From contig CP066691.1 of the NCBI GenBank assembly GCA_016432485.1, positions 281,762 through 345,761 of the forward strand: 64,000 bases of DNA, in the 5' to 3' direction. Of the stretch, positions 5,120 to 37,997 are shown in pieces; position 1 is the first letter of the stretch, and each line of letters begins with the position of its first letter. Source of the DNA: Candidatus Niyogibacteria bacterium. GTDB lineage: Bacteria > Patescibacteriota > Minisyncoccia > HO2-45-28. The notes under the pieces were generated by a model. That model saw only the letters and a program-made list of their open reading frames with translations. It did no database searches and had not been told where the DNA came from. A program made the position numbers and the translations under genes.

Positions 5120-5833
5120 CTAAGATGTTCGGAACAAAAAATCACGGTGCTTATAGATACCGTCGCGGACAACGGCTTCAACGCCCTCGCCCGTCAAAGC
5201 GTTAGCCCCAAAGACCAACTGCGTCCATCCTTTAATTTCGCGCAGCAATCCGTTAAGCATCGCGGAAAACCTTTTTTCTTCGTCTGCTTTGCCTCTTAAA
5301 TTCAAAACCATGATGTGAGCGTGTTCGTGTATGCCGGATTTCATAAGGTTGACGATATCGGCCCTGATATCCGGTAAAAAGATGAAAGTATCCGCCGCGT
5401 CTTTAATTCCCAAATCCATTTGTCCGGCGCCGGGACTTTCGACTAAAACGATTTCAGCAAAATGAGAAGCGACGTTCACCAAATTCAACAAATGCGGAAC
5501 GCTTGAATCTTTTGAGCCCCTGGAACTCAGGGAACGAATGAAAACTCCCTCATCCAAATAGTGAGCGCGCATTCTTATTCTGTCGCCAAGAAACGCTCCG
5601 CCGCTTTCCGGGTCGCTCGGGTCAATCGCAAGCACCACAACGGATTTATTATCGCTCCTTAATGCTTTTATAATTTGGTTAGTCAAAGTGCTTTTTCCGG
5701 CAGCGGCCGCGCCGGTTACGCCGACTACGTGCGCCGGGCCGCGCGATTGAAATTCCGGCGGAAAATTTCTGCCGTCGGCAGCGCAACTTAAAAGACGCGT
5801 CAGTCGCTTGGGGTCAGCCACGTTAACGCTCAT
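5120..5833 (-). CDS. meaB: MeaB/ArgK-like G3E GTPase (methylmalonyl-CoA mutase chaperone)
   Basis: P-loop GVTGAAAAGKST; overlaps the upstream mutase gene by 11 nt; ArgK/MeaB-like overall pattern, although shorter than canonical MeaB. Confidence 0.7.
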   Translation of the reverse strand: MSVNVADPKRLTRLLSCAADGRNFPPEFQSRGPAHVVGVTGAAAAGKSTLTNQIIKALRSDNKSVVVLAIDPSDPESGGAFLGDRIRMRAHYLDEGVFIRSLSSRGSKDSSVPHLLNLVNVASHFAEIVLVESPGAGQMDLGIKDAADTFIFLPDIRADIVNLMKSGIHEHAHIMVLNLRGKADEEKRFSAMLNGLLREIKGWTQLVFGANALTGEGVEAVVRDGIYKHRDFLFRTS

Positions 5834-7853
5834 TTGCTTTCTCCTCTCCTTCCTTTAAAAATTCGGCGATATTTTTATAGAGATCGGGTCCGGCCGTAAA
5901 AAAACGCTCAACCCCCGATTTCTTCAATAGGTCCGCTTCGGTTCGGCGAATAATTCCCCCGCCGATAACTTTGGCTCTTTCATGTCCGACAATCCGCAAA
6001 TTTTGAATAAGGTCTTCAAAAAGTACGACCGGCGAACCTATATGAGTGGATACCGCGACAACATCAACGTTTTCCTGCAAAGCCACCCTTGCCAAATTCA
6101 AAGTTGAAAGATGTAGTCCGGGATAAATAACTTCCGCGCCCAGATTTTTTAAAAACGGAGCAATAAGATAGATCGGCCTGTCATGACCATCAAGTCCTCC
6201 CTTGGCCAATAAAACCCTCAACGGTTTTTTCAAACGATAAATTCTGACGAGATCGGCTGAATTTTTGTCCGGCTCTGCCGGCACGTAAAGTCCTTTATCC
6301 TCATACGCGCCCCAAACCTGTTTCATGGCTGAAACAATTTCACCAAGAGTCGCTCCGCTTGTCGCCGCGCGAATTAAAAACGGCATTATGTTTTCTTCGG
6401 TTTCGGCAACACGGCGAATATCGTCCAGGGCGGAGCGCGCTTCTGAAATTTTGCTGAATGCCGATCTTTCGCGCTTAAAAGCCGCGAGACTTTCAAGCTG
6501 TCTTTCTTCAAAACCCCGCCTGGTTTCAAGCTCGCGGGCAACGCTTTCCGGCTCATCCAATTCTTCTTGCAGGCAATATTTTGTGACTCCGACAATCTGC
6601 ATCGCGCCCGAACGCAAACCCCGATCATATTCTCGCGCTGATTCCTGCACAACCCTTTGAGGGTATCCGGCTTTGACCGCCTCAATCATTCCGCCGATTT
6701 GCTCTATTCTCTGAATTTCGGCAAGAGCTTCTTCAAAAATTCTTTGAGTACTTTCCTCTATAAAATACGAGCCGCCCAGGGCGTCGACAACGGCGCAAAT
6801 TCCGGTTTCTTCCTGCAAAATCTGCTGAGTGCGGGCCGCGACTCTGGCTGCTCCTTCGGTCGGCGTGCACATCACCTCGTCATACGAATTAGTGTGCATA
6901 CTTTGGGCTCCGCCTAAAGCTCCGGCCAGAGCCTGAATGGCAACGCGCACGATGTTATTCAGCGACTCCTCTCGGGTCAAAGTGCAGCCGGCAGTCTGAA
7001 CATGCATCCGGCACCACTCGGAACGGTAATTTTTAGCGCCAAACCAATGCCGCATAATATGCGCCCATAATTTGCGCGCCGCGCGCAGTTTCGCTATTTC
7101 TTCCAGAAAGTCATTATGGATATCAAAAAAGAAAGAAAGCCGGGGCGCGAAATCATCAATTTTCAAACCGCGTTTTACGGCCTCGCGCGCGTAGGCAACG
7201 CCGTCGGCCAAAGTAAAAGCCAGTTCCTGAACCGCCGTGGCTCCGGCTTCTCGGATATGGTAACCGCTGATTGATATGGGATTCCATCTCGGCATATATT
7301 TGGCCGCGAACTCAATCGTATCCGTAACCAATCTCATGCTCGGTCCTTCAGGAAAAATCCATTCCCGCTGAGCTATAAATTCTTTCAATATGTCGTTTTG
7401 GATCGTCCCGCCTAATTTTTCAACGGCGATTCCTCTTTTTTGAGCCATAGCGATATACATAGCCCAGATTATTGCCGCGGGCCCGCTGATAGTCATTGAA
7501 ACCGTAAGCTGGTCTATGGCAATGCCGTTAAAAAGCTCTTCCATATCGCGGATAGTGTCTACAGCGACGCCATCCCAGCCCACTTCTCCCCGGCAGATCG
7601 GGTCATCCGAATCAAATCCCATAAGCGTAGGCAGGTCAAACGGCGTTGAAAGTCCGGTAGTCCCGGCGCCTAAAAGCATTTTCCAGCGGGCATTAGTATC
7701 AAAAGCCAAGCCGTGTCCGGCAAATTGCCTGATGGTCCACTTTTTATCTCGGTACATTCCGGGATGAATCCCTCGGGTATATGGAAATTCTCCAGCCGGC
7801 GCCGGCTCATGAAGAGCCGCGAAACCTTCAGCCAGTTCGTCCGCTAATCGCAC
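5823..7853 (-). CDS. methylmalonyl-CoA mutase-like, fused substrate-binding barrel plus C-terminal B12-binding domain (MutB-like)
   Basis: Conserved MCM N-terminal motifs (FAGHGLAFDTNARWKMLLGAGTTGLS). C-terminal cobalamin-binding DxHxxG signature (GLDGHDRP) and a Rossmann-like B12 domain. Confidence 0.8.
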   Translation of the reverse strand: MRLADELAEGFAALHEPAPAGEFPYTRGIHPGMYRDKKWTIRQFAGHGLAFDTNARWKMLLGAGTTGLSTPFDLPTLMGFDSDDPICRGEVGWDGVAVDTIRDMEELFNGIAIDQLTVSMTISGPAAIIWAMYIAMAQKRGIAVEKLGGTIQNDILKEFIAQREWIFPEGPSMRLVTDTIEFAAKYMPRWNPISISGYHIREAGATAVQELAFTLADGVAYAREAVKRGLKIDDFAPRLSFFFDIHNDFLEEIAKLRAARKLWAHIMRHWFGAKNYRSEWCRMHVQTAGCTLTREESLNNIVRVAIQALAGALGGAQSMHTNSYDEVMCTPTEGAARVAARTQQILQEETGICAVVDALGGSYFIEESTQRIFEEALAEIQRIEQIGGMIEAVKAGYPQRVVQESAREYDRGLRSGAMQIVGVTKYCLQEELDEPESVARELETRRGFEERQLESLAAFKRERSAFSKISEARSALDDIRRVAETEENIMPFLIRAATSGATLGEIVSAMKQVWGAYEDKGLYVPAEPDKNSADLVRIYRLKKPLRVLLAKGGLDGHDRPIYLIAPFLKNLGAEVIYPGLHLSTLNLARVALQENVDVVAVSTHIGSPVVLFEDLIQNLRIVGHERAKVIGGGIIRRTEADLLKKSGVERFFTAGPDLYKNIAEFLKEGEEKANER

Positions 7854-29387: not shown

Positions 29388-30089
29388 TTATTTTATTCTT
29401 ATTTTTTTCTCGTTTCGTCCGGCGTAATAATCGCACTTTTTGCACTCCAAATCGTCTCCCGGGTAAGGTTTTTCAAGAAAATCAACCATTTCTTTGAGTT
29501 TCTTTTCAAAATTTTTGGCGTCAATTTTCACTTCGTCCACATGACTCGCGAATTTCACTTCTGTTGACGGGTCGTTTTTGTCTTTGACGAAATAGTGCAG
29601 CAAAAAGGCGCGGTCTGACGGCTTATATCCGTTTTTCAAAAACATATAGCCATAGGCGGCAAGTTGGTCGCGGTAATATTTCTGCTTGTCTTCAGCCGGC
29701 GCGTTGCCGGATGATTTGTAATCGGCCGGAATAAAGCGGCCGTCCGATTCCACAAAAACATCGTCAATTTTTCCGACAAGTTCGTAACCCGAATTTTCAT
29801 TTACCACTTTAAGCGCGCTGGAATTGGTCCGCCACTCGTTGAGAAGTTCCAGATCGTCAAAAGTCCTTATGCCCATTTTCTCAAGCTCCTTGGATTCCGG
29901 CGGAAATTTTTTGTCGGCGCGGTATTTGTCGTATCTGGTCTTTAAAATGCTGTCCATCGCCGTATTTAAAGCCAACGGCAGCATCGGCGGTTTTCTATGA
30001 TGATTCTCAAGCCAAAAACAGGCCTTGCATTCCGTATAAGAATAAAGCCCGCTCGGGCTCAACTTCCATAATCCATTTTTTGTTTTCAT
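29388..30089 (-). CDS. PD-(D/E)xK nuclease, Cas4/RecB-like, with four Cys
   Basis: IDD...ADYK nuclease motif. N-terminal CKAC and C-terminal CKKC pairs, consistent with Cas4-type Fe-S ligation. Confidence 0.55.
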   Translation of the reverse strand: MKTKNGLWKLSPSGLYSYTECKACFWLENHHRKPPMLPLALNTAMDSILKTRYDKYRADKKFPPESKELEKMGIRTFDDLELLNEWRTNSSALKVVNENSGYELVGKIDDVFVESDGRFIPADYKSSGNAPAEDKQKYYRDQLAAYGYMFLKNGYKPSDRAFLLHYFVKDKNDPSTEVKFASHVDEVKIDAKNFEKKLKEMVDFLEKPYPGDDLECKKCDYYAGRNEKKIRIK

Positions 30090-30271
30090 GATTTTGGTTT
30101 TTTGTTCTTTTTTAAGTGTTTAAAAATCTCAATTTGACGAAGGCGCCTTTCGGCTTCTTTTTTTGTGTTATATCTTCCAAAAACTCTGCCTGTTTTTTCC
30201 GACGTCACCACATACTGTCCCTTGACTTTTTTAATCACGTACCTATAATAACACCGGACGTTGTTAAGCAT
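30086..30271 (-). CDS. small basic protein, hypothetical
   Basis: 61 aa, Lys/Arg-rich; overlaps the upstream nuclease gene by 4 nt. Confidence 0.35.
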   Translation of the reverse strand: MLNNVRCYYRYVIKKVKGQYVVTSEKTGRVFGRYNTKKEAERRLRQIEIFKHLKKNKKPKS

Positions 30272-30556
30272 AAGGGGGATGCCGTGAAAATTCTACGCGC
30301 TCTTCTTAAGGCGCTAAATCCTCTCATCTGGCTTATTAATCTGTTTATGTACTTTGCGCATCTTGAGGGTCAGAGATCTTGTAAAGAATATCATCCTTAT
30401 GATTTTTTCTGGGATCTAAAATATTTTTAAGGCCGAACCGCCCAACCCTCTTGGGCGGTTTCAATTGTTGCAAAGCATTTAATTATTCATATAATGTATA
30501 GAGAAGTTCCCTTTAAATTCATTCCGCAGTAGCTCAATGGTAGAGCAGCTCCCTGT

Positions 30557-31128
30557 GAATAAAATAGTTCGTTTTTTGTGGTATACTTAAATGTGTATGC
30601 CAAAAGAAAAACGAACATACGCCGACCGCCGAGAGTATTTAAAAATGGCAGTGACCAAAAGACGACGAAGATTAAAAACACTGCTTGTAGAATATAAAGG
30701 CGGGAAATGCACGGTCTGCAGTTATAATAAAACCCCGTGGGCAATGGATCTTCATCATGTTGATGAATCCAAGAAATCATTTGATATGTCCTCACGCGGA
30801 CTTACCCGCTCATGGGAACGTCTTAAAAAAGAGGCAGATAAGTGTGTGTTGCTTTGTGCAAATTGTCACAGAGAAATACACGCCGGCGTAACGCAGCTTC
30901 CTAAAGTAATTTAGGTTGAAAAATCTCGGGATAACGGTGAAGCCCTAAATCTTTTGCATTAGATTGGGTAATACCGTGGGAACCTTTGCTTGTTCGGGGT
31001 TTACTCCGAGCGAAGTCGAGGAGCGCCGTAGAGACTAGATACCGAGATCCCGCCATTCATTTGAAATATTATTTAATGGAGGGGGGGAAAGATATAGTCC
31101 AACCCTAAAAGTAATTTTAGGACCGTTG
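30557..31128 (+). mobile_element. group I intron (about 572 nt) with an embedded HNH homing-endonuclease ORF
   Basis: Lies between tRNA halves. Exon 1 ends in T and the intron ends in G (accgttG). P7-like pairing GAGACTAGA / GATATAGTCC, with the latter close to the Tetrahymena AGATATAGTCGG segment. P9-like hairpin CCTAAAAgtaaTTTTAGG just before the 3' splice site. Confidence 0.6.
30591..30914 (+). CDS. HNH homing endonuclease (intron-encoded)
   Basis: CTVCS...DLHHVD...CANCHREIH HNH/zinc-finger motif; 107 aa, basic. Confidence 0.75.
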   Translation: MCMPKEKRTYADRREYLKMAVTKRRRRLKTLLVEYKGGKCTVCSYNKTPWAMDLHHVDESKKSFDMSSRGLTRSWERLKKEADKCVLLCANCHREIHAGVTQLPKVI

Positions 31129-31234
31129 TAAGGAGTTGGTTGTAGGTTCGAATCCTACCTGCGGAGCCAATAAACTAGATACGAACTCATTTTTTGAAGA
31201 TTAGACCTCTATCAGAGGTCGTATCCAGCGCGGT

Positions 31235-31270
31235 TGACAATCGCTTGACAATTGAATATAGATTGCTTGG
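31235..31270 (+). promoter_or_regulatory. candidate promoter for the SNF2 operon
   Basis: Two TTGACA hexamers (GCGGTTGACAATCGCTTGACAATTGAATATAGAT); the first is 17 nt from TATAGA. Confidence 0.3.
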
Positions 31271-31292
31271 GTTTTGTGCCGCAAAACGCCCC

Positions 31293-31331
31293 GCCCCCGC
31301 CTCCGGCATATGCCGGAGGCGGGGGGTTTTA
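31293..31331 (+). terminator. intrinsic terminator downstream of the tRNA
   Basis: CCCCGCCTCCGGCATATGCCGGAGGCGGGGGG followed by TTTT. Confidence 0.7.
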
Positions 31332-31464
31332 GGTTGAAATCAGGCCAAAAATGTGGGAAAGTAAGGGGGATATGAAGAATCTCATGGAAAAATTGAAAAA
31401 GGTGCTTATCAAAGAGATGTTTACACATTCGGTGTTCCGCTTGATGATTTAATCAAGTAGAAAT

Positions 31465-34398
31465 ATGTCGGTTTTTCTTAAAAAATATTTGGCTGAAAAA
31501 GTAGCTCTTCAAAAAATGGCCGGCTCTTTGAACCGCCTATCTTCTGTCTTGGCAAAATCAACGATTGACCTCAACCCGTATCAAATTCATGCGGCTCTTT
31601 ACGCATTTAACAGTCCGCTTTCTCGTGGCGCAATTTTGGCCGATGAAGTCGGCTTGGGTAAGACGATTGAAGCCGGCATTATCATATCCCAACTTTGGGC
31701 CGAAGGGAAGAGAAAGATATTAATTCTTGCCCCGGCCTCGTTAAGAAAACAGTGGCAAGATGAGTTGCTTTCAAAATTTGGAATTGAATCAGAAGTTTGG
31801 GACGGCCCCTCTTTTAGGGCGCAAACAGACATGGGAGAAAAGACACCCCTAACTTACAGTGGCGTTTTTATAATTTCTTACCATTTTGCTTACAGCCACC
31901 TTGAATTGATAAGGAAGCAAGGTTGGGCTGTTGTTGTAATAGATGAAGCCCATCGTTTTAGGCGTGTGTTCAAGGGAAGAGATGCCTCAAAAATGGCATA
32001 CGACATTCGGGAAATAATAAAAGATAAACCAAAGGTTTTGCTGACGGCAACACCCCTGCAAAACAGCCTTGAGGAATTATACGGGATAGCAAGTTTTATA
32101 GACGACAAGCTTCTCGGATCATCCTATAGTTTCAAAACGAAGTTCATACAGCCGATAAAGGACCAGTCGGGGTTAGCTAAATTGAGATTGGAGGAATTGA
32201 GGGCATTGATACGCGGGGAAGAAGGCGACGACCCGTCGTCAATCTCCGGAGTAATTACACGGACTTTGAGAAAACAAGTTTTGGAGTATGTGCAATTTAC
32301 CGACAGGACATCAATGACTTTTGACTTTACTCCCACCGAGGAAGAAGTTGAATTGTACGAGAAAGTTTCCGCATACCTCCAGCGTCCTAATGTGGCGGCC
32401 ATTACCGCGACGCAGAGAAATTTGATGATTCTCGTTTACAGAAAATTATTGGCCAGTTCGTCGTTCGCCATAGCCGACACCCTGAAGAAGTTAAGTGAGA
32501 ATCTAAAAAACGAATTGAAGTTGCGAAATAAAGAAGCAGTGGCCGAGGAGTTGAATCCGGAGTCAACGGCAGATGAGGGCCTTTTGGAAGAATTTGAAGA
32601 ATCAGAATTGGAGGGAGTAGAACAAGGTCAGAAGAAAGAAAAGCAACGCGTTGACGATACTTTTAGCGATGACGACATAAAAAAGGAAATAGAGGAGTTG
32701 GAAGGATATTATTCATTGGCAGTCAAAATTAAAGAAAACACAAAGGGTAAAGCGTTGATTAACGCCTTGTCGCAACTTTTCAAACAGGCCAGAGAAAAGA
32801 AGTGGCCTGAAAAAGCTGTGGTGTTCACAGAGTCAACGCGCACTCAGGACTATCTTTTAAAACTTCTCAAAGAAGCCGGAATTTCTTTTACGGAATTCAA
32901 CGGGTCAAATAACTCGCCCGAAGCACGAGAGGCATTCAATCGTTGGAAAAAGGAGTTTCCAGAAGCGGCATCTGTTGGTTCAGCATCTGCCAACACGCGC
33001 CAAGCTCTTATTCATGACTTCAGAACAAATACACAAGTCTTGCTTACCACAGAAGCGGGGGCGGAAGGATTAAACCTCCAGTTTGCAAATATTGTCATCA
33101 ATTATGATTTGCCGTGGAATCCTCAAAGAGTGGAACAGAGAATCGGCCGTTGCCACCGCTACGGCCAAAAGCACCAAGTGGTAGTTGCGAATTTTCTTAA
33201 TACAAAAAATTACGCCGATAAGCGAGTACTGGAATTGTTGAGCGAGAAACTAAATTTATTTAACGGACTTTTTGGAAGTTCCGATGAGATTCTTGGCGCT
33301 TTGGAATCCGGTCTTGATTTTGAAAAGAAGATACTTGAAATTTATCAAAACAGCAGAAGCCCTGAAGAATACGACAAAGCGTTTACAGAACTACAGGAAA
33401 GCTTGAAAGATGTTATCTCAAAAACAACCTTGCAATATAGAAACTTGTTATTGGAAAGCGCGGATCAAGCTGTTGCCGCATTATTCAAAAAAACGGAAGC
33501 GGAAACTAAAAAAGCGATTTCAGATTTTGACAGGGATTTGCTTTTTCTCTGCAAGCTCACGCTGGAAGAAAAGATAAAACCAACCGAGGATGAGGCGATT
33601 TTTGTGATAGATGGTTATAAATTTCCGATTGCTTTTCGAGAGCTTCGCGATGATGAAGAAGGTAAAATTTCCCGCGCGCACAAAGACCATCCAGTCATCA
33701 GTAAAATTATTGAAGATAATTTGAAACTGCAAACTAAGCCGATACCTTCTTTGATTTTTGAGCTTTCAAAACACGGCGGTAAAATATCCCAGTTGAGCGA
33801 CGCTAAAGTAAAAGAAGGATTTATATTTCTTTGGAAGTTAAAGATAGCCGGAGTCGAGACGGAAGAAATTTTAGTGCCGCTCGTTTTTCTCGAAAAAACA
33901 GAAGGCGAATTCAGCGCATTGGATGTGGCAATTGCCAATGAATTCATTGATGTGGAAAGTGTTGATTCTGAAAAAACACTTGAGAGTTCGCCTATTAAAA
34001 AAGAGTTTTTGCTTCAAACTTGGGAAAAATGGAAAAAGCCAGTTGTAGAAAGGTATCAGAAAAGAAATGAGCGTCTTTTTGACAGGGAGACGAACAGGAT
34101 AAACCGATATTACGACGACTACGCGCTTCGTGTTGAAGATAGGATGAAAAAGTCGGAAAATGAACAAAAGGATGTAAATCGTAGGAGAGATAATTCCTCC
34201 GACTTGGAAGAAAGGCGGAAGTTGCTCAAGCGAATTCAAGACATCAATATTGCTTTGGACAAGCTAAGAATCCAGCAGTTGAAGTTGAGACAAGAAGGTG
34301 CGAAATTGCGAGAAAAAGAACTGGACAATCTTTGGAAAACTCTGGAGCCGAAAATTTCCGAAGAAATGATTGCGATAACGCATTTCACCATTCAATAA
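31465..34398 (+). CDS. SNF2-family DNA-dependent ATPase/translocase with a roughly 350-aa C-terminal domain of unknown function
   Basis: Motif I DEVGLGKT, Ia PASLRKQWQDE, II DEAH, III TATPLQNSLEELY, helicase-C motifs (TEAGAEGLNLQ, QRIGRCHRYGQ). Acidic insert between lobes; coiled-coil C-terminus. Confidence 0.85.
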   Translation: MSVFLKKYLAEKVALQKMAGSLNRLSSVLAKSTIDLNPYQIHAALYAFNSPLSRGAILADEVGLGKTIEAGIIISQLWAEGKRKILILAPASLRKQWQDELLSKFGIESEVWDGPSFRAQTDMGEKTPLTYSGVFIISYHFAYSHLELIRKQGWAVVVIDEAHRFRRVFKGRDASKMAYDIREIIKDKPKVLLTATPLQNSLEELYGIASFIDDKLLGSSYSFKTKFIQPIKDQSGLAKLRLEELRALIRGEEGDDPSSISGVITRTLRKQVLEYVQFTDRTSMTFDFTPTEEEVELYEKVSAYLQRPNVAAITATQRNLMILVYRKLLASSSFAIADTLKKLSENLKNELKLRNKEAVAEELNPESTADEGLLEEFEESELEGVEQGQKKEKQRVDDTFSDDDIKKEIEELEGYYSLAVKIKENTKGKALINALSQLFKQAREKKWPEKAVVFTESTRTQDYLLKLLKEAGISFTEFNGSNNSPEAREAFNRWKKEFPEAASVGSASANTRQALIHDFRTNTQVLLTTEAGAEGLNLQFANIVINYDLPWNPQRVEQRIGRCHRYGQKHQVVVANFLNTKNYADKRVLELLSEKLNLFNGLFGSSDEILGALESGLDFEKKILEIYQNSRSPEEYDKAFTELQESLKDVISKTTLQYRNLLLESADQAVAALFKKTEAETKKAISDFDRDLLFLCKLTLEEKIKPTEDEAIFVIDGYKFPIAFRELRDDEEGKISRAHKDHPVISKIIEDNLKLQTKPIPSLIFELSKHGGKISQLSDAKVKEGFIFLWKLKIAGVETEEILVPLVFLEKTEGEFSALDVAIANEFIDVESVDSEKTLESSPIKKEFLLQTWEKWKKPVVERYQKRNERLFDRETNRINRYYDDYALRVEDRMKKSENEQKDVNRRRDNSSDLEERRKLLKRIQDINIALDKLRIQQLKLRQEGAKLREKELDNLWKTLEPKISEEMIAITHFTIQ

Positions 34399-34399
34399 T

Positions 34400-35374
34400 A
34401 TGTCAACGGAAATTAAACAAAAAAAACAGGACTTGGGAATTTTTTACACCGACCAGAGAATCGTGAGTTTTATATATGATATTCTTTCTGTCTGGAAAGC
34501 AAAAGAGGACGAGGATTTAAAGCGTTGGGAGAGTCGAAAACCTCATGCTCACTATCCGTCAGTTATTGATCCGGCTTGCGGCGAGGGAATCTTCTTAAAG
34601 AAAGCAGTGGAGTCCGGTTTTACCGGATACAATCCTACACATAAAGTGCCATATATTTTCGGTATTGATATAGATGAATCGGTTGTTGATAAATGGGAAT
34701 CTGTTGAGCTTCTAAATTTTTTCCACGAAGACAGAAGGGCAATGAAAAATCACTTTTATGGCCAAAACGGATTGCTTAATCTGCCGAATAGAAAATTGCC
34801 TTACAAAAAAATGGAAGACGGACTTGTACAATTTGATGCGGTTGTTGGTAATCCGCCGTATGGAGGCATCGGTCTTAAAGAAGAAGAAATGAGGGGCAAA
34901 TTGGCGGCATCCCTTTTGGAGTACGAGATATGGAAATACGCTTTTGATATACAAATAAGCAAGCAGGGAAATATGTTTGGATCCATGGCCTCTCAAAAGG
35001 ACATTGTAAATAGATTGAGAAATATGCCCATCGAAATTTTATTTCTAGAGAGATTTATACAACTTGCAAAGCCGGGCGGTTGGATAGCTATCATTATTCC
35101 AGACGGCATTTTAACCAATTCAAATTCTCACTATGTACGCGAATTTGTTAGCGAGAAAGCAAGAGTGGAAGCAATTGTTTCTTTGCCGCGAGACGCTTTC
35201 AAAAATGTTGGCACAACAGCCAAAACCAGCATTTTATTTTTACAAAAATATAAAGACCAAGGGAAAGAGCGAGATTTAAACTATCCGGTTTTTCTCGCTT
35301 CAGTCGAATCTCTTGAAGAAAAATATTTTAAAATTATAAAAGATGCTTACCAAAAGCATTATACAAAAATATGA
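34400..35374 (+). CDS. gamma-class N6-adenine DNA methyltransferase (HsdM/Eco57I-like catalytic module without TRD)
   Basis: Motif I DPACGEGIFL and motif IV VVGNPPYGG; the start is 2 nt after the SNF2 stop. Confidence 0.8.
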   Translation: MSTEIKQKKQDLGIFYTDQRIVSFIYDILSVWKAKEDEDLKRWESRKPHAHYPSVIDPACGEGIFLKKAVESGFTGYNPTHKVPYIFGIDIDESVVDKWESVELLNFFHEDRRAMKNHFYGQNGLLNLPNRKLPYKKMEDGLVQFDAVVGNPPYGGIGLKEEEMRGKLAASLLEYEIWKYAFDIQISKQGNMFGSMASQKDIVNRLRNMPIEILFLERFIQLAKPGGWIAIIIPDGILTNSNSHYVREFVSEKARVEAIVSLPRDAFKNVGTTAKTSILFLQKYKDQGKERDLNYPVFLASVESLEEKYFKIIKDAYQKHYTKI

Positions 35375-36198
35375 GCAAGAAAAATTTAGTTCAAATAACA
35401 ACAGATGAAAAAGGTCGGGAAATCGTAATGGTACGAGTGGATAAAACCCTGAAAGAAATGATGGAAGAAAAACCATCAAGTAGATGGAATGCTGCTTACT
35501 GGCATCCAACCTATGTTAAAAATTCAGAAGAAATAGCAGCAAGTAATTTTTCTGTAATTAAAATAGGCGACGCGGAAGAAAGATTGACTTATGGCGCAAT
35601 CGTTACTGGCGGGAAAAATTATGAGGGGAAGGGAGTATTTTTAGTCAATCAGGGAGATATCCAATTTACCGGATTAGATAATACGAATTTGAAAGAAGTT
35701 AAAAAAGCTTCTCCTTGGAATATTGAACGCGCAAAGGTTAAACTTAATTCTTTGATTTTAGCTCGATCTGGAGTTGGAGGAGTTGGTAAAAATCGAATTA
35801 CTATTATAACCAAGCCAATGAATGCGGTGGTAGATAGTTTTGTTGATGTTTTAGACCTAGACGATAAAAAAATTAATCCTGTTTATGTACTTGTCTTTTG
35901 GAAAACTATGTTTGGGAAATTACAAATTGAAAGAATAATAAATGGCGTTGGAACTGTAAATATTAGTTTTGATGAAATTAGAGAAATGAAAATACTTGAT
36001 ATTTCGGAAGGTGTTCAAGGCAATATTGAATCCGAATATAAAAAAATATCTGTCTTTCACGACAAGGCAATGGAAGCAAAGAAAAAGGGCAAGGATGTGG
36101 AATACAAAGCTAACATGGAAACCGCCGAGAGAATGCTGAAAGATTTAATCGCTAAAACCGAAGCCGTTATTCGCGGCGAGAAAAAAGATGTAATTTAA
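35371..36198 (+). CDS. HsdS-like DNA specificity protein with a single target-recognition domain
   Basis: TRD-like pattern (LTYGAIVTGG..., LILARSGVGGVGKNRITI, INGVGTVNISFDEIREMKILDISE) plus a helical conserved region. Overlaps the MTase stop by 4 nt. Confidence 0.7.
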   Translation: MSKKNLVQITTDEKGREIVMVRVDKTLKEMMEEKPSSRWNAAYWHPTYVKNSEEIAASNFSVIKIGDAEERLTYGAIVTGGKNYEGKGVFLVNQGDIQFTGLDNTNLKEVKKASPWNIERAKVKLNSLILARSGVGGVGKNRITIITKPMNAVVDSFVDVLDLDDKKINPVYVLVFWKTMFGKLQIERIINGVGTVNISFDEIREMKILDISEGVQGNIESEYKKISVFHDKAMEAKKKGKDVEYKANMETAERMLKDLIAKTEAVIRGEKKDVI

Positions 36199-36203
36199 TT
36201 TTT

Positions 36204-37997
36204 ATGCCAGAACAAAGGTCGGAAAATTCTTATATCGTAAACGACATCTTACCGTTTCTGGCAAGCAATTTTGGCTACCCGATTCATGACGCGGAGCGAG
36301 TAAAAATAAACGATGTTCCGATTTTTCGGCCAAGCGGCGGCAGAAGTGGGTCCACAATTGATATTGTCTACTATCATAACGGGGAGCCAGTTCTTCTCAT
36401 TGAAGCAAAAACTAAACATAAAACTCATGAGTCCGCATTGATAGAAGCAAAGAATTATCTAAAAAACTTTCCCATAGACAAACCGGAGTTTGCTCCGTCT
36501 GGCTTGCCCCCAAAAATTTTGGCAACAACAGTCGGTAAAAACATTAAATTTTACAAATGGAGCATAGATTATTCAAAACCAATTCCGGATTTTATAACCG
36601 AAGAAATTGAGGTTTTATCATTTGAGAAGTTGCTTTCCTACTACGGATTAATTAAAGAATATAAGGCGCGCATTTTAGAGCCCAAAAACTTTGCCACGGA
36701 TTTTTTTGACGAACTAATTTCTATTTTCAAATTTCATAAAAAAGAGAAAAAAATAACAAAGGATGTTGTCAAAGAAGTTGTTTATCAAATTCACAATTAT
36801 TTGCTGAATCCAAAAAAATACACCGGCGATTATCCTTACACCGAATTGGACTTACAAGGACAAAAAGCCGTTCGCGATCTGTTTAAGCGATTTGATTTTG
36901 TCGCTTCGCTTGGCCCGGAAATAGCCAAAGAATTTCGCAAGTCGATTTTGAGATCTTTTCAAGGCGAAGAATTCAATCAGTACCTTACCGAAAAATGCGT
37001 TATAGATTTTGTTTTCGGTCTGATTGGCAAATTGAACAAACACACGAAAGTTTTGGATTTCGAGTGTGGTAGTGGAGGATTTTTGGCGACGGCAGTCAAT
37101 CAGAACAATTTGGATTTGGAAAATGTGATGGGGATTGATATTGAGGACTTGCCTTATATCATCGCCAAAACTTACTTTGCTCTGTACTTCGGAAAAACCG
37201 GTGAGGGGTTGAATCTTGTCCCAATAAAGAAAGATAACGGCTTGTTTTATCACGGCAAGAATTGGGATTTAGTTGTGGGCAATCCCGCCGGAAGCAGTAA
37301 ATACGAACATGGCGATGAAGATAAAATTTTTGAGAATCTAAATAGTGATTTAAATAACGACGACAAAAAAGATAAAATTTCGGAGTACAATTTGTCAATT
37401 CAGCAAGCGATTCAATCCGCTCGCGTTGGCGGCAAGATTTGTTTGATACTGCCTGAAGGAGTGTTTTCAAATTCTCAAGACGAGTTTTTAAGAAAATATA
37501 TCGCCAAATATTGCAATATATTGGCAATCGTGAGCTTGCCACCGGGGTCGTTCAGAAGAGGAACAACAGTAAGCCAGTTAAGGAGAGGCGCACAATCTGC
37601 TTCAATGAAAATGTCTATTGTGTACGCGGAAAAAACCAGAGAGGTCAGGAAAAAAGAAGGATTGGAAGTTGATTTGAGGCATTTGGACTACCCGATATTT
37701 TTAGCGCACATTGATAAGGTTGATTCCGGATCAGGCGAAATCAGTGAATGGCTGGAGGAAAGATTAAACGTTGTGTTGGAGCAATGGAAAGAGTGGCAGA
37801 ATAAAGCTGAATTGAATGATATTGAAAAAATAACCACAAAGCTTGATAAAGAAGAAAAGATAAAAGAAAATCAAAAAACTTTGTTTAGCAAGGTCGAGCT
37901 CGACAAGACAAACATAGAAAAAAGTAAAAAGATAAAACCAAAAGAGGGTAAGTCAGAAACAAAGATAAGCAAAAACTTGGAAGATTTATTAAGTTAA
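36204..37997 (+). CDS. HsdR_N-type PD-(D/E)xK nuclease fused to a paralogous N6-MTase-like domain with a degenerate motif IV (NPAG) and a Lys-rich coiled-coil tail
   Basis: N-terminus GSTIDIVYYHNGEPVLLIEAKTK (D...ExK). MTase-like domain has motif I LDFECGSGGFLATAV but VVGNPAGSS in place of NPPY. Collinear similarity to the 34400-35374 protein (MGIDIE vs FGIDID, GGKICLILPEGV vs GGWIAIIIPDGI, AIVSLPP vs AIVSLPR). Confidence 0.7.
   Translation: MPEQRSENSYIVNDILPFLASNFGYPIHDAERVKINDVPIFRPSGGRSGSTIDIVYYHNGEPVLLIEAKTKHKTHESALIEAKNYLKNFPIDKPEFAPSGLPPKILATTVGKNIKFYKWSIDYSKPIPDFITEEIEVLSFEKLLSYYGLIKEYKARILEPKNFATDFFDELISIFKFHKKEKKITKDVVKEVVYQIHNYLLNPKKYTGDYPYTELDLQGQKAVRDLFKRFDFVASLGPEIAKEFRKSILRSFQGEEFNQYLTEKCVIDFVFGLIGKLNKHTKVLDFECGSGGFLATAVNQNNLDLENVMGIDIEDLPYIIAKTYFALYFGKTGEGLNLVPIKKDNGLFYHGKNWDLVVGNPAGSSKYEHGDEDKIFENLNSDLNNDDKKDKISEYNLSIQQAIQSARVGGKICLILPEGVFSNSQDEFLRKYIAKYCNILAIVSLPPGSFRRGTTVSQLRRGAQSASMKMSIVYAEKTREVRKKEGLEVDLRHLDYPIFLAHIDKVDSGSGEISEWLEERLNVVLEQWKEWQNKAELNDIEKITTKLDKEEKIKENQKTLFSKVELDKTNIEKSKKIKPKEGKSETKISKNLEDLLS

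Follow-up and report, generated by a model that had tools for sequence, protein, structure and literature searches.

A tRNA-Asn(GUU) gene of a Niyogibacteria bacterium very probably split by a mobile group I intron with an HNH endonuclease gene

Which tRNA is encoded by two half-genes that lie 572 nt apart in the genome of Candidatus Niyogibacteria bacterium, where would their transcripts be joined, and what is the sequence that separates them? The halves were found in a stretch of 64,000 nt (assembly GCA_016432485.1, contig CP066691.1, positions 281,762 to 345,761 of the forward strand), which is called the window here, and the sequence between them contains an open reading frame (ORF) for an HNH endonuclease. 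Our results point, with a probability of about 0.88, to a single tRNA-Asn(GUU) gene, carried by a cellular bacterium and split between positions 35 and 36 of the anticodon by a 572-nt mobile group I intron carrying an HNH gene. Group I introns at site 35/36 of tRNA-Asn(GUU) genes in Patescibacteria were described by Nakagawa et al. (mSystems 2026, PMC13011429; preprint 10.1101/2025.07.03.662931, July 2025), and four of those tRNA-Asn introns encode HNH endonucleases. The exon sequence of the window is absent from the 22 tRNAs of Table S3 of that work (PMC13011429), and the locus is therefore a further member of the kind described there.

The two exons account for a whole tRNA. By parts, exon 1 consists of TCCGCAG, TA, GCTC, AATGGTA, GAGC, A, GCTCC and CTGT, and exon 2 consists of TAA, GGAGT, TGGTT, GTAGG, TTCGAAT, CCTAC, CTGCGGA, G and CCA. 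A first-pass annotation, made from the letters alone, had described tRNA halves 572 nt apart with complementary acceptor strands, canonical D and T arms and an encoded CCA, and all of this was borne out: the coordinates (30523-30556 and 31129-31169) agreed, the acceptor strands TCCGCAG and CTGCGGA paired perfectly, the D arm was GCTC/GAGC and the T arm GTAGG/CCTAC, and the CCA was encoded at 31167-31169. Its assignment to tRNA-Asn GUU with G73 was also correct, since the spliced exons formed a 75-nt cloverleaf that ARAGORN called Asn(gtt), with the discriminator G at 31166. With introns allowed, ARAGORN reported one gene in the 64-kb window, a tRNA-Asn at 30523-31169 (gtt) with i(35,572), while the default program found zero tRNAs in the whole 64 kb, and neither mode found any tRNA in the window besides the split tRNA-Asn. 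The spliced tRNA was identical to the uninterrupted tRNA-Asn of a related locus, L067, at 62/72 positions (86%). The U1-A72 pair and G73 of the spliced tRNA fit the E. coli tRNA-Asn pattern, and the top blastn match of the spliced tRNA in E. coli genomes, a tRNA-Arg with 74% identity and an E value of 0.01, was uninformative for the choice between Asn and Thr. The locus is also the trap for tRNA callers that had been predicted for it, as the unspliced loop CTGTGAA reads as His(gtg), an error that ARAGORN made at three related loci; besides the 0 calls of default ARAGORN here, related loci were named Thr or His.

Several 7-nt anticodon loops can be made from CTGTGAA... and ...CCGTTGTAA. With slashes marking the splice sites, the junction CTGT/...TTG/TAA, which the first-pass annotation had proposed, is the sole option for a 7-nt loop with U at position -1 and G at the end of the intron, and the joined exons give the anticodon loop CUGUUAA. 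We fetched 80 genome loci encoding relatives of the intron ORF, 64 of which carry the ORF inside a split tRNA. The junction CTGT/...G/TAA was present in 60/60 homologous loci that could be tested by script, all with U(-1) and the terminal G. ARAGORN with the -i option named 42 related loci Thr(tgt), with the intron at 33 or 34, because the introns of these loci end in GTG/TAA; the two-base junction ambiguity of such introns has already been described in the literature. The introns of the window and of its close relative L001 end in TTG/TAA, and the ambiguity between 33/34 and 35/36 is therefore absent from them. The window is thus an unambiguous example, as the U/G rule is enough to settle the junction.

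The sequence between the exons contains the core of a group I ribozyme. The Rfam covariance model RF00028 (Intron_gpI) matched 30815-31121 on the plus strand with 57.3 bits against a gathering score of 50 (E 6.3e-12), and the match spanned model positions 1-253 and was not truncated. Chance does not account for the split tRNA with its group I intron. The P7-like pairing that had been noticed earlier, GACTA at 31033-31037 with TAGTC at 31095-31099, proved to be P7, and the P9-like hairpin before the 3' splice site was P9 at 31104-31121. The Rfam alignment put P1/P2 (30815-30904) inside the HNH ORF, a placement that comparison with relatives showed to be wrong, so that intron boundaries taken automatically from the Rfam match would be wrong at the 5' end. 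The ORF fills the loop of P1, and its last codons hold the internal guide sequence. The guide sequence GCAGC, followed by a variable hairpin just after the ORF, was invariant in 54/54 unique homologs, in which the +1 pair of P1 was G-C in 43, A-U in 6 and G-U in 2, with a mismatch in 3.

The helices were further supported by covariation. A hand-written P1-P9 structure of 47 pairs, with P7 as a pseudoknot, was compared with an alignment of 11 introns of the same core type as that of the window. Paired cells made up 96.3% of the total, against 34-45% when the partners were slid by 1-3 columns, both-sided changes occurred in 21/47 pairs, and 0/500 shuffles reached the observed values. Most of the covariation was found in P2, P3, P8 and P9, P1 was 100% paired, and P7 was invariant and hence uninformative. 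In P2, both-sided changes were seen at all 6 pairs; this hairpin alone folded at -4.8 kcal/mol (z -3.6), and each of the peripheral hairpins P2, P5, P6, P8 and P9 folded singly as expected. P7 is separated from P3' (the 3' strand of P3) by GAUA alone (31038-31041) in the window, as it is in 8 of 53 further unique HNH-bearing introns, whereas the remaining unique HNH-bearing introns analysed have a hairpin there. Subgroup IA, to which 25/28 introns at 35/36 were assigned (PMC13011429), is marked by extra P7.1/P7.2 helices between P7 and P3', and since the window intron has only GAUA at this place it was not put into subgroup IA.

The first-pass annotation had reported an in-frame 107-aa HNH ORF with the motif CANCHREIH; the ORF and the motif were confirmed, but the term "in-frame" has no meaning within a tRNA intron. 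The version of 107 aa is the longest one (30591-30914), and homologs begin with MP(E/D)KRTY, which is equivalent to the ATG at 30597 in the window. The ORF matched the PHROG families phrog_2255 "HNH endonuclease" (E 1.5e-29) and phrog_3106 (E 4e-27), and in the PDB the HNH domain of a group II intron maturase and that of McrA (6me0 and 6ghc) were weakly matched. Over its full length the protein was 51-63% identical to the ORFs translated from the four published Patescibacteria tRNA-Asn introns (Table S3, PMC13011429), with C38, C41, H53, H54, C87, N89, C90, H91 and H95 as residues invariant among the window protein and the four published HNH proteins, a set that includes two CxxC pairs. In comparison with relatives, pN was 0.09-0.27 and pS was 0.62-0.80, with synonymous sites near saturation; pN lies far below pS, and the nuclease is therefore under purifying selection. 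Look-up of the exact protein returned three Logan contigs of about 1 kb.

GTDB species genomes had at least 562 loci encoding relatives of the nuclease, and IMG/VR viral contigs had at least 586, so that this family is far more common than four published cases would suggest. Among the matches listed, the closest locus (L001) was 97.3% identical over 29399-31170 and belonged to a metagenome-assembled genome (MAG) labelled uncultured Saccharibacteria bacterium, and other close loci came from MAGs labelled Wildermuthbacteria, Paceibacter, Kazan and similar. L001 retains the whole element; most of its intron and the ORF are unchanged, whereas its flanks have diverged. In L001:1427-2487 the otherwise near-identical intron has a wholly different and shorter P6 extension hairpin in place of window 30978-31027. 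Compared with window 31150-31380, L001 also has about 194 additional nucleotides directly 3' of its tRNA, after which the final 20 nt of the tRNA occur again; this arrangement resembles the mark left by an element that had integrated at the tRNA 3' end. In another related locus, L002:1431-2215, the intron is 712 nt long owing to a large insertion in P8, and the HNH ORF has an in-frame stop, which shows that the nuclease can decay in this family.

Among the viral relatives, 80 IMG/VR loci (L084-L163) were examined. Their nucleases, 46-61% identical, are free-standing genes within tRNA arrays and lie outside introns, whereas the window gene is intron-borne; over all the phage relatives the identities were 44-61%. 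The next downstream tRNA was an uninterrupted tRNA-Asn(GTT) in 46/80 viral loci, typically 15 nt away, and the nearest upstream tRNA was tRNA-Asn in 16 viral loci; tRNA-Asn made up 74/522 of the tRNAs in the 80 loci. Cultured phages with relatives include FelixO1, in which ORF44 (L164:1309-1863), an HNH gene of the same free-standing kind beside a phage tRNA, adjoins tRNA-Ile, as well as large Vibrio phages and Lak phages. The free-standing layout was seen in two Patescibacteria loci too (L053:1501-1892 and L067:306-750). T4 SegB is likewise free-standing in a tRNA gene cluster, but it is a GIY-YIG enzyme (PMC2330249), whereas the relatives here are HNH proteins.

The start of the nuclease gene is set within a conserved hairpin. 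The first 60 nt of the intron fold so that the start codon and the first codons pair with upstream non-coding sequence, with an outer stem (30567-30577/30606-30616), an inner stem (30579-30586/30595-30602) and a loop at 30587-30594. The start codon was paired upstream in the minimum-free-energy fold of 46/57 homologous introns, compared with a mean of 19.8 and a maximum of 28 after the upstream sequence had been shuffled. A TAYMMT hexamer ending 6-10 nt before the start codon was found in 45/56 unique homologous introns (shuffles: mean 1.2, maximum 7), the TGn extension of this -10-like box was present in 33/58 introns, and the box is retained even where the surroundings of the start codon differ. 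These features suggest an internal promoter that would give a leaderless or near-leaderless HNH mRNA, while the start codon would be hidden in the precursor. In the td intron of phage T4, the ORF of I-TevI also lies in an intron loop, with its start hidden by a hairpin in the host-gene transcript and freed by transcription from an intron-internal promoter. The window nuclease shares the position of the ORF in an intron loop, the start-hiding hairpin and a candidate internal promoter; in T4, by contrast, the promoter is a late-phage promoter, the enzyme is of the GIY-YIG type and the host gene codes for a protein, whereas the window has only a conserved -10-like box, with a leaderless mRNA predicted.

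Table 1. Positions, within the 64-kb window, of the split tRNA gene, its intron and the signals around them (ATG, start codon; MFE, minimum free energy).
Feature	Position	Strand	Remarks
Promoter-like site (TTGCAA, 16 nt, TATAAT)	30468..30495	+	consensus scan, 10/12 matches; putative function
tRNA-Asn 5' exon	30523..30556	+	acceptor 5' strand, D arm, anticodon stem 5' strand, loop C32 U33 G34 U35
P1 5' strand (exon CUGU and intron G+1)	30553..30557	+	pairs with CGCAG; U30556.G30893 wobble at cleavage site
Group I intron, 572 nt, between anticodon positions 35 and 36	30557..31128	+	first base G30557, last base omega G 31128
P1-loop hairpin over HNH start codon	30567..30616	+	MFE -22.9 kcal/mol
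Extended -10-like box TGgTATACT	30579..30587	+	ends 9 nt before ATG 30597; putative promoter activity
HNH endonuclease ORF, 105 aa	30597..30914	+	ATG 30597 (MPKEKRTY...), start common to homologs; TAG 30912-30914
P1 3' strand, internal guide sequence CGCAG	30892..30896	+	within last codons of HNH ORF
P2 hairpin (CCUAAA GUAA UUUAGG)	30900..30915	+	ORF stop codon in its 3' strand
Whole ribozyme core P3-P9	30924..31121	+	Rfam RF00028 alignment
P3	30924-30929/31042-31047	+	Rfam alignment and covariation
P4	30934-30939/30972-30977	+	Rfam alignment and covariation
P5	30942-30945/30966-30969	+	Rfam alignment and covariation
P6 with long extension	30978-30979/31026-31027	+	Rfam alignment and covariation
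P7	31033-31037/31095-31099	+	pseudoknot with P3; GACUA/UAGUC
P8 with extension	31048-31051/31085-88	+	Rfam alignment and covariation
P9	31104-31110/31115-31121	+	Rfam alignment and covariation
tRNA-Asn 3' exon	31129..31169	+	U36 A37 A38, anticodon stem 3' strand, variable loop, T arm, acceptor 3' strand, G73, CCA
Terminator-like hairpin, then T run	31294..31325	+	14 pairs, 13 G-C; about 125 nt 3' of tRNA; putative function

From these elements the course of splicing can be proposed. One precursor would be transcribed from the promoter-like site, which ends 27 nt 5' of the tRNA and is kept in L001, and its intron would fold into the P3-P9 core. The short P1, formed by CUGU and G+1 with CGCAG 335 nt downstream, would set the 5' splice site with a U.G pair at the point of cleavage; an external guanosine bound in P7 would attack after U30556, and the terminal G31128 would then occupy the guanosine site while the exons are joined. 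The product would be a 75-nt tRNA-Asn with the loop CUGUUAA and the encoded CCA. The window copy of the intron is probably catalytic, by analogy with one ORF-less tRNA-Asn intron and one tRNA-Asp intron that self-spliced in vitro at 35/36 and whose products were sequenced, with a terminal G-to-C change as the negative control (PMC13011429). The HNH protein, as its homology suggests, would be a homing endonuclease that cuts intron-less tRNA-Asn genes, after which repair would copy the intron in. The hairpin would hide the nuclease start in the precursor, and the extended -10 box would start a leaderless mRNA that does not contain the 5' strand of the hairpin.

Several observations weigh against this reading or parts of it. 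P1 is short, with 5 pairs closing over 335 nt; in 19/54 homologs it has 6 pairs, where exon base -5 pairs with the guide sequence. No P10 pairing was evident when the 3' exon was compared with the bases that precede the guide sequence. The spliced intron of GCA_016700035.1 (PMC13011429) and most HNH-bearing relatives have the extra hairpin between P7 and P3', so that the experimental proof comes from a cousin of the window intron and not from a sister. As regards the nuclease, no Pfam family was assigned to the ORF at default thresholds, and HNH (PF01844) reached 15.0 bits, below the gathering score of 21.4 (E 0.027); five aligned members of the nuclease family all matched PF01844 at E values up to 0.1, the best being 2.1e-4. 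The PHROG profiles were aligned over their C-terminal halves only, and the protein may therefore be without a separate DNA-binding domain. The -10 box overlaps the 5' strand of the hairpin in part, and some of its conservation may thus reflect pairing rather than a promoter.

Among the alternatives, an intron at 33/34 with tRNA-Thr(UGU) as the product is what ARAGORN and tFind call at most homologous loci, including the 42 named Thr(tgt) at 33 or 34, and exons joined at 30554/31127 likewise form a cloverleaf. We nevertheless regard it as very improbable, because the window intron would then end in T31126 and not in G, ARAGORN itself calls Asn at 35 for the window locus, the tRNA body is 86% identical to an intron-less tRNA-Asn, and U1-A72 with G73 speaks for asparagine as well. 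The sequenced splicing products of a relative were also joined at 35/36 (PMC13011429). An intron of the archaeal type, spliced by proteins, was rejected, as the site is 35/36 and not 37/38, a full group I core is present and no bulge-helix-bulge motif was seen by eye.

If the locus is a tRNA-Asn gene with a group I intron, it might still be a decaying pseudo-tRNA with an inactive intron or nuclease, the decoding being done by a second intact tRNA-Asn elsewhere. Another copy could lie outside the 64 kb, as the window has no other tRNAs, and decay does exist in the family, as seen from the stop in the L002 nuclease. All core helices are intact and agree with the family consensus, however, the exons make a perfect cloverleaf, the ORF has its full length compared with homologs, in L001 the ORF and the greater part of the intron are unchanged although the flanks have diverged, and relatives with complete genomes have no tRNA-Asn gene other than the intron-bearing one, all of which makes decay improbable. 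A further possibility, compatible with the RNA side of the tRNA-Asn intron, is that the HNH protein has ceased to act in homing and has been kept for another role, for example as a maturase or a domesticated nuclease. Its strong purifying selection over deep divergence and its size of only about 105 aa, covering just the C-terminal half of longer phage HNH profiles, would suit such a role. It is still an unlikely one, since ORF-less relatives splice without any protein (PMC13011429), the phage relatives stand free beside an uninterrupted tRNA-Asn in the usual layout of homing nuclease and target, and identical exons hold diverged introns in the window and L066.

Compared with the family of Nakagawa et al. 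(PMC13011429), the window locus has in common the host gene, the 35/36 site, the CUGU/...G/UAA junction, the guide GCAGC, the P2 module, the nuclease family (at the identities given above) and the place of the ORF in the P1 loop before the guide sequence; intron lengths are 568-606 nt there and 572 nt here, and standard tRNA callers fail on both. For GCA_000503835.1 and GCA_001029735.1, which are complete and have HNH-bearing introns, tRNAscan-SE gave 0 and ARAGORN gave 1 tRNA-Asn (Table S2, PMC13011429, with columns read as alphabetical by amino acid). The core differs in the GAUA linker, where the spliced intron has its hairpin. A homing endonuclease gene in a bacterial tRNA intron is rare (12/333; PMC13011429). 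The tRNA-Leu(UAA) intron of cyanobacteria and plastids, the positive control in PMC13011429, is also a self-splicing group I intron in an anticodon loop, with the tRNA body holding the exons, but it lies at 34/35, belongs to subgroup IC3, and is about 250 nt long with no ORF. The cyanobacterial tRNA-fMet(CAU) introns (PMC13011429) share the anticodon loop and the homing endonuclease gene, and differ in their site (33/34), their PD-(D/E)XK nuclease (PF11645) and their phylum. The text of PMC13011429 makes no mention of promoters within introns, hairpins or phages, and the start-codon hairpin, the -10-like box and the phage relatives beside intact tRNA-Asn are additions to that work.

The window is cellular DNA and encodes BipA, DnaG, MgsA, a P-type ATPase, methylmalonyl-CoA mutase, and DUF5667 and PMT_2 proteins. 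The methylmalonyl-CoA mutase (5823-7853, minus strand) is full-length with a B12-binding domain (E 7e-191), and to our knowledge this enzyme is unusual in small-genome Patescibacteria. Going by the labels of the close loci and the DUF5667 and PMT_2 genes, the host would most likely belong to Patescibacteria/CPR. A gene for a PD-(D/E)XK, Cas4-like nuclease (29388-30089, minus strand) lies on the strand opposite to the tRNA, some 430 nt upstream of it. Directly 3' of the tRNA, a defence-type gene set occupies 31465-37997, with a 977-aa SNF2 helicase that matches DISARM DrmD (E 2e-184), two proteins similar to N6-adenine methyltransferases and one like a type I specificity subunit, and a stretch of low G+C (0.37-0.39) extends from about 34 to 42 kb of the window. 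The defence genes look like an island adjoining the tRNA gene; no repeat of the 3' end of the tRNA, as an att site for such an island, was found in the 64-kb window. The coding strand switches around 30000-31460: the long ORFs left of the tRNA all run on the minus strand, and those on its right run on the plus strand as far as about 55.5 kb. The minimum of the cumulative GC skew falls at this switch, and together these give a replication-origin pattern. DnaA boxes were not enriched at the switch, with 15 found against 11.7 expected.

For the organism, dependence of asparagine decoding on splicing is plausible by analogy with its relatives, in which the intron-bearing gene is usually the sole copy of the genome (PMC13011429); that the 64-kb window has no other tRNA says little in this respect. 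If the window gene is the sole copy, all decoding of asparagine hangs on RNA catalysis, a point made for the relatives in PMC13011429. Standard callers miss or misname the gene, so that the genome would seem to be without a tRNA-Asn, and such seeming losses would affect completeness estimates for small-genome bacteria. We put forward tentatively, at somewhat less than even odds, that the nuclease gene is a self-contained cassette, with an internal -10 box, a leaderless mRNA and a start-hiding hairpin, whose source or exchange partner may be the free-standing HNH genes beside tRNA-Asn in phage tRNA arrays. If this is true, nuclease synthesis would be uncoupled from tRNA production, the folding of the ribozyme would be left undisturbed, and a phage-exchanged cassette would tie phages to the spread of introns in Patescibacteria.

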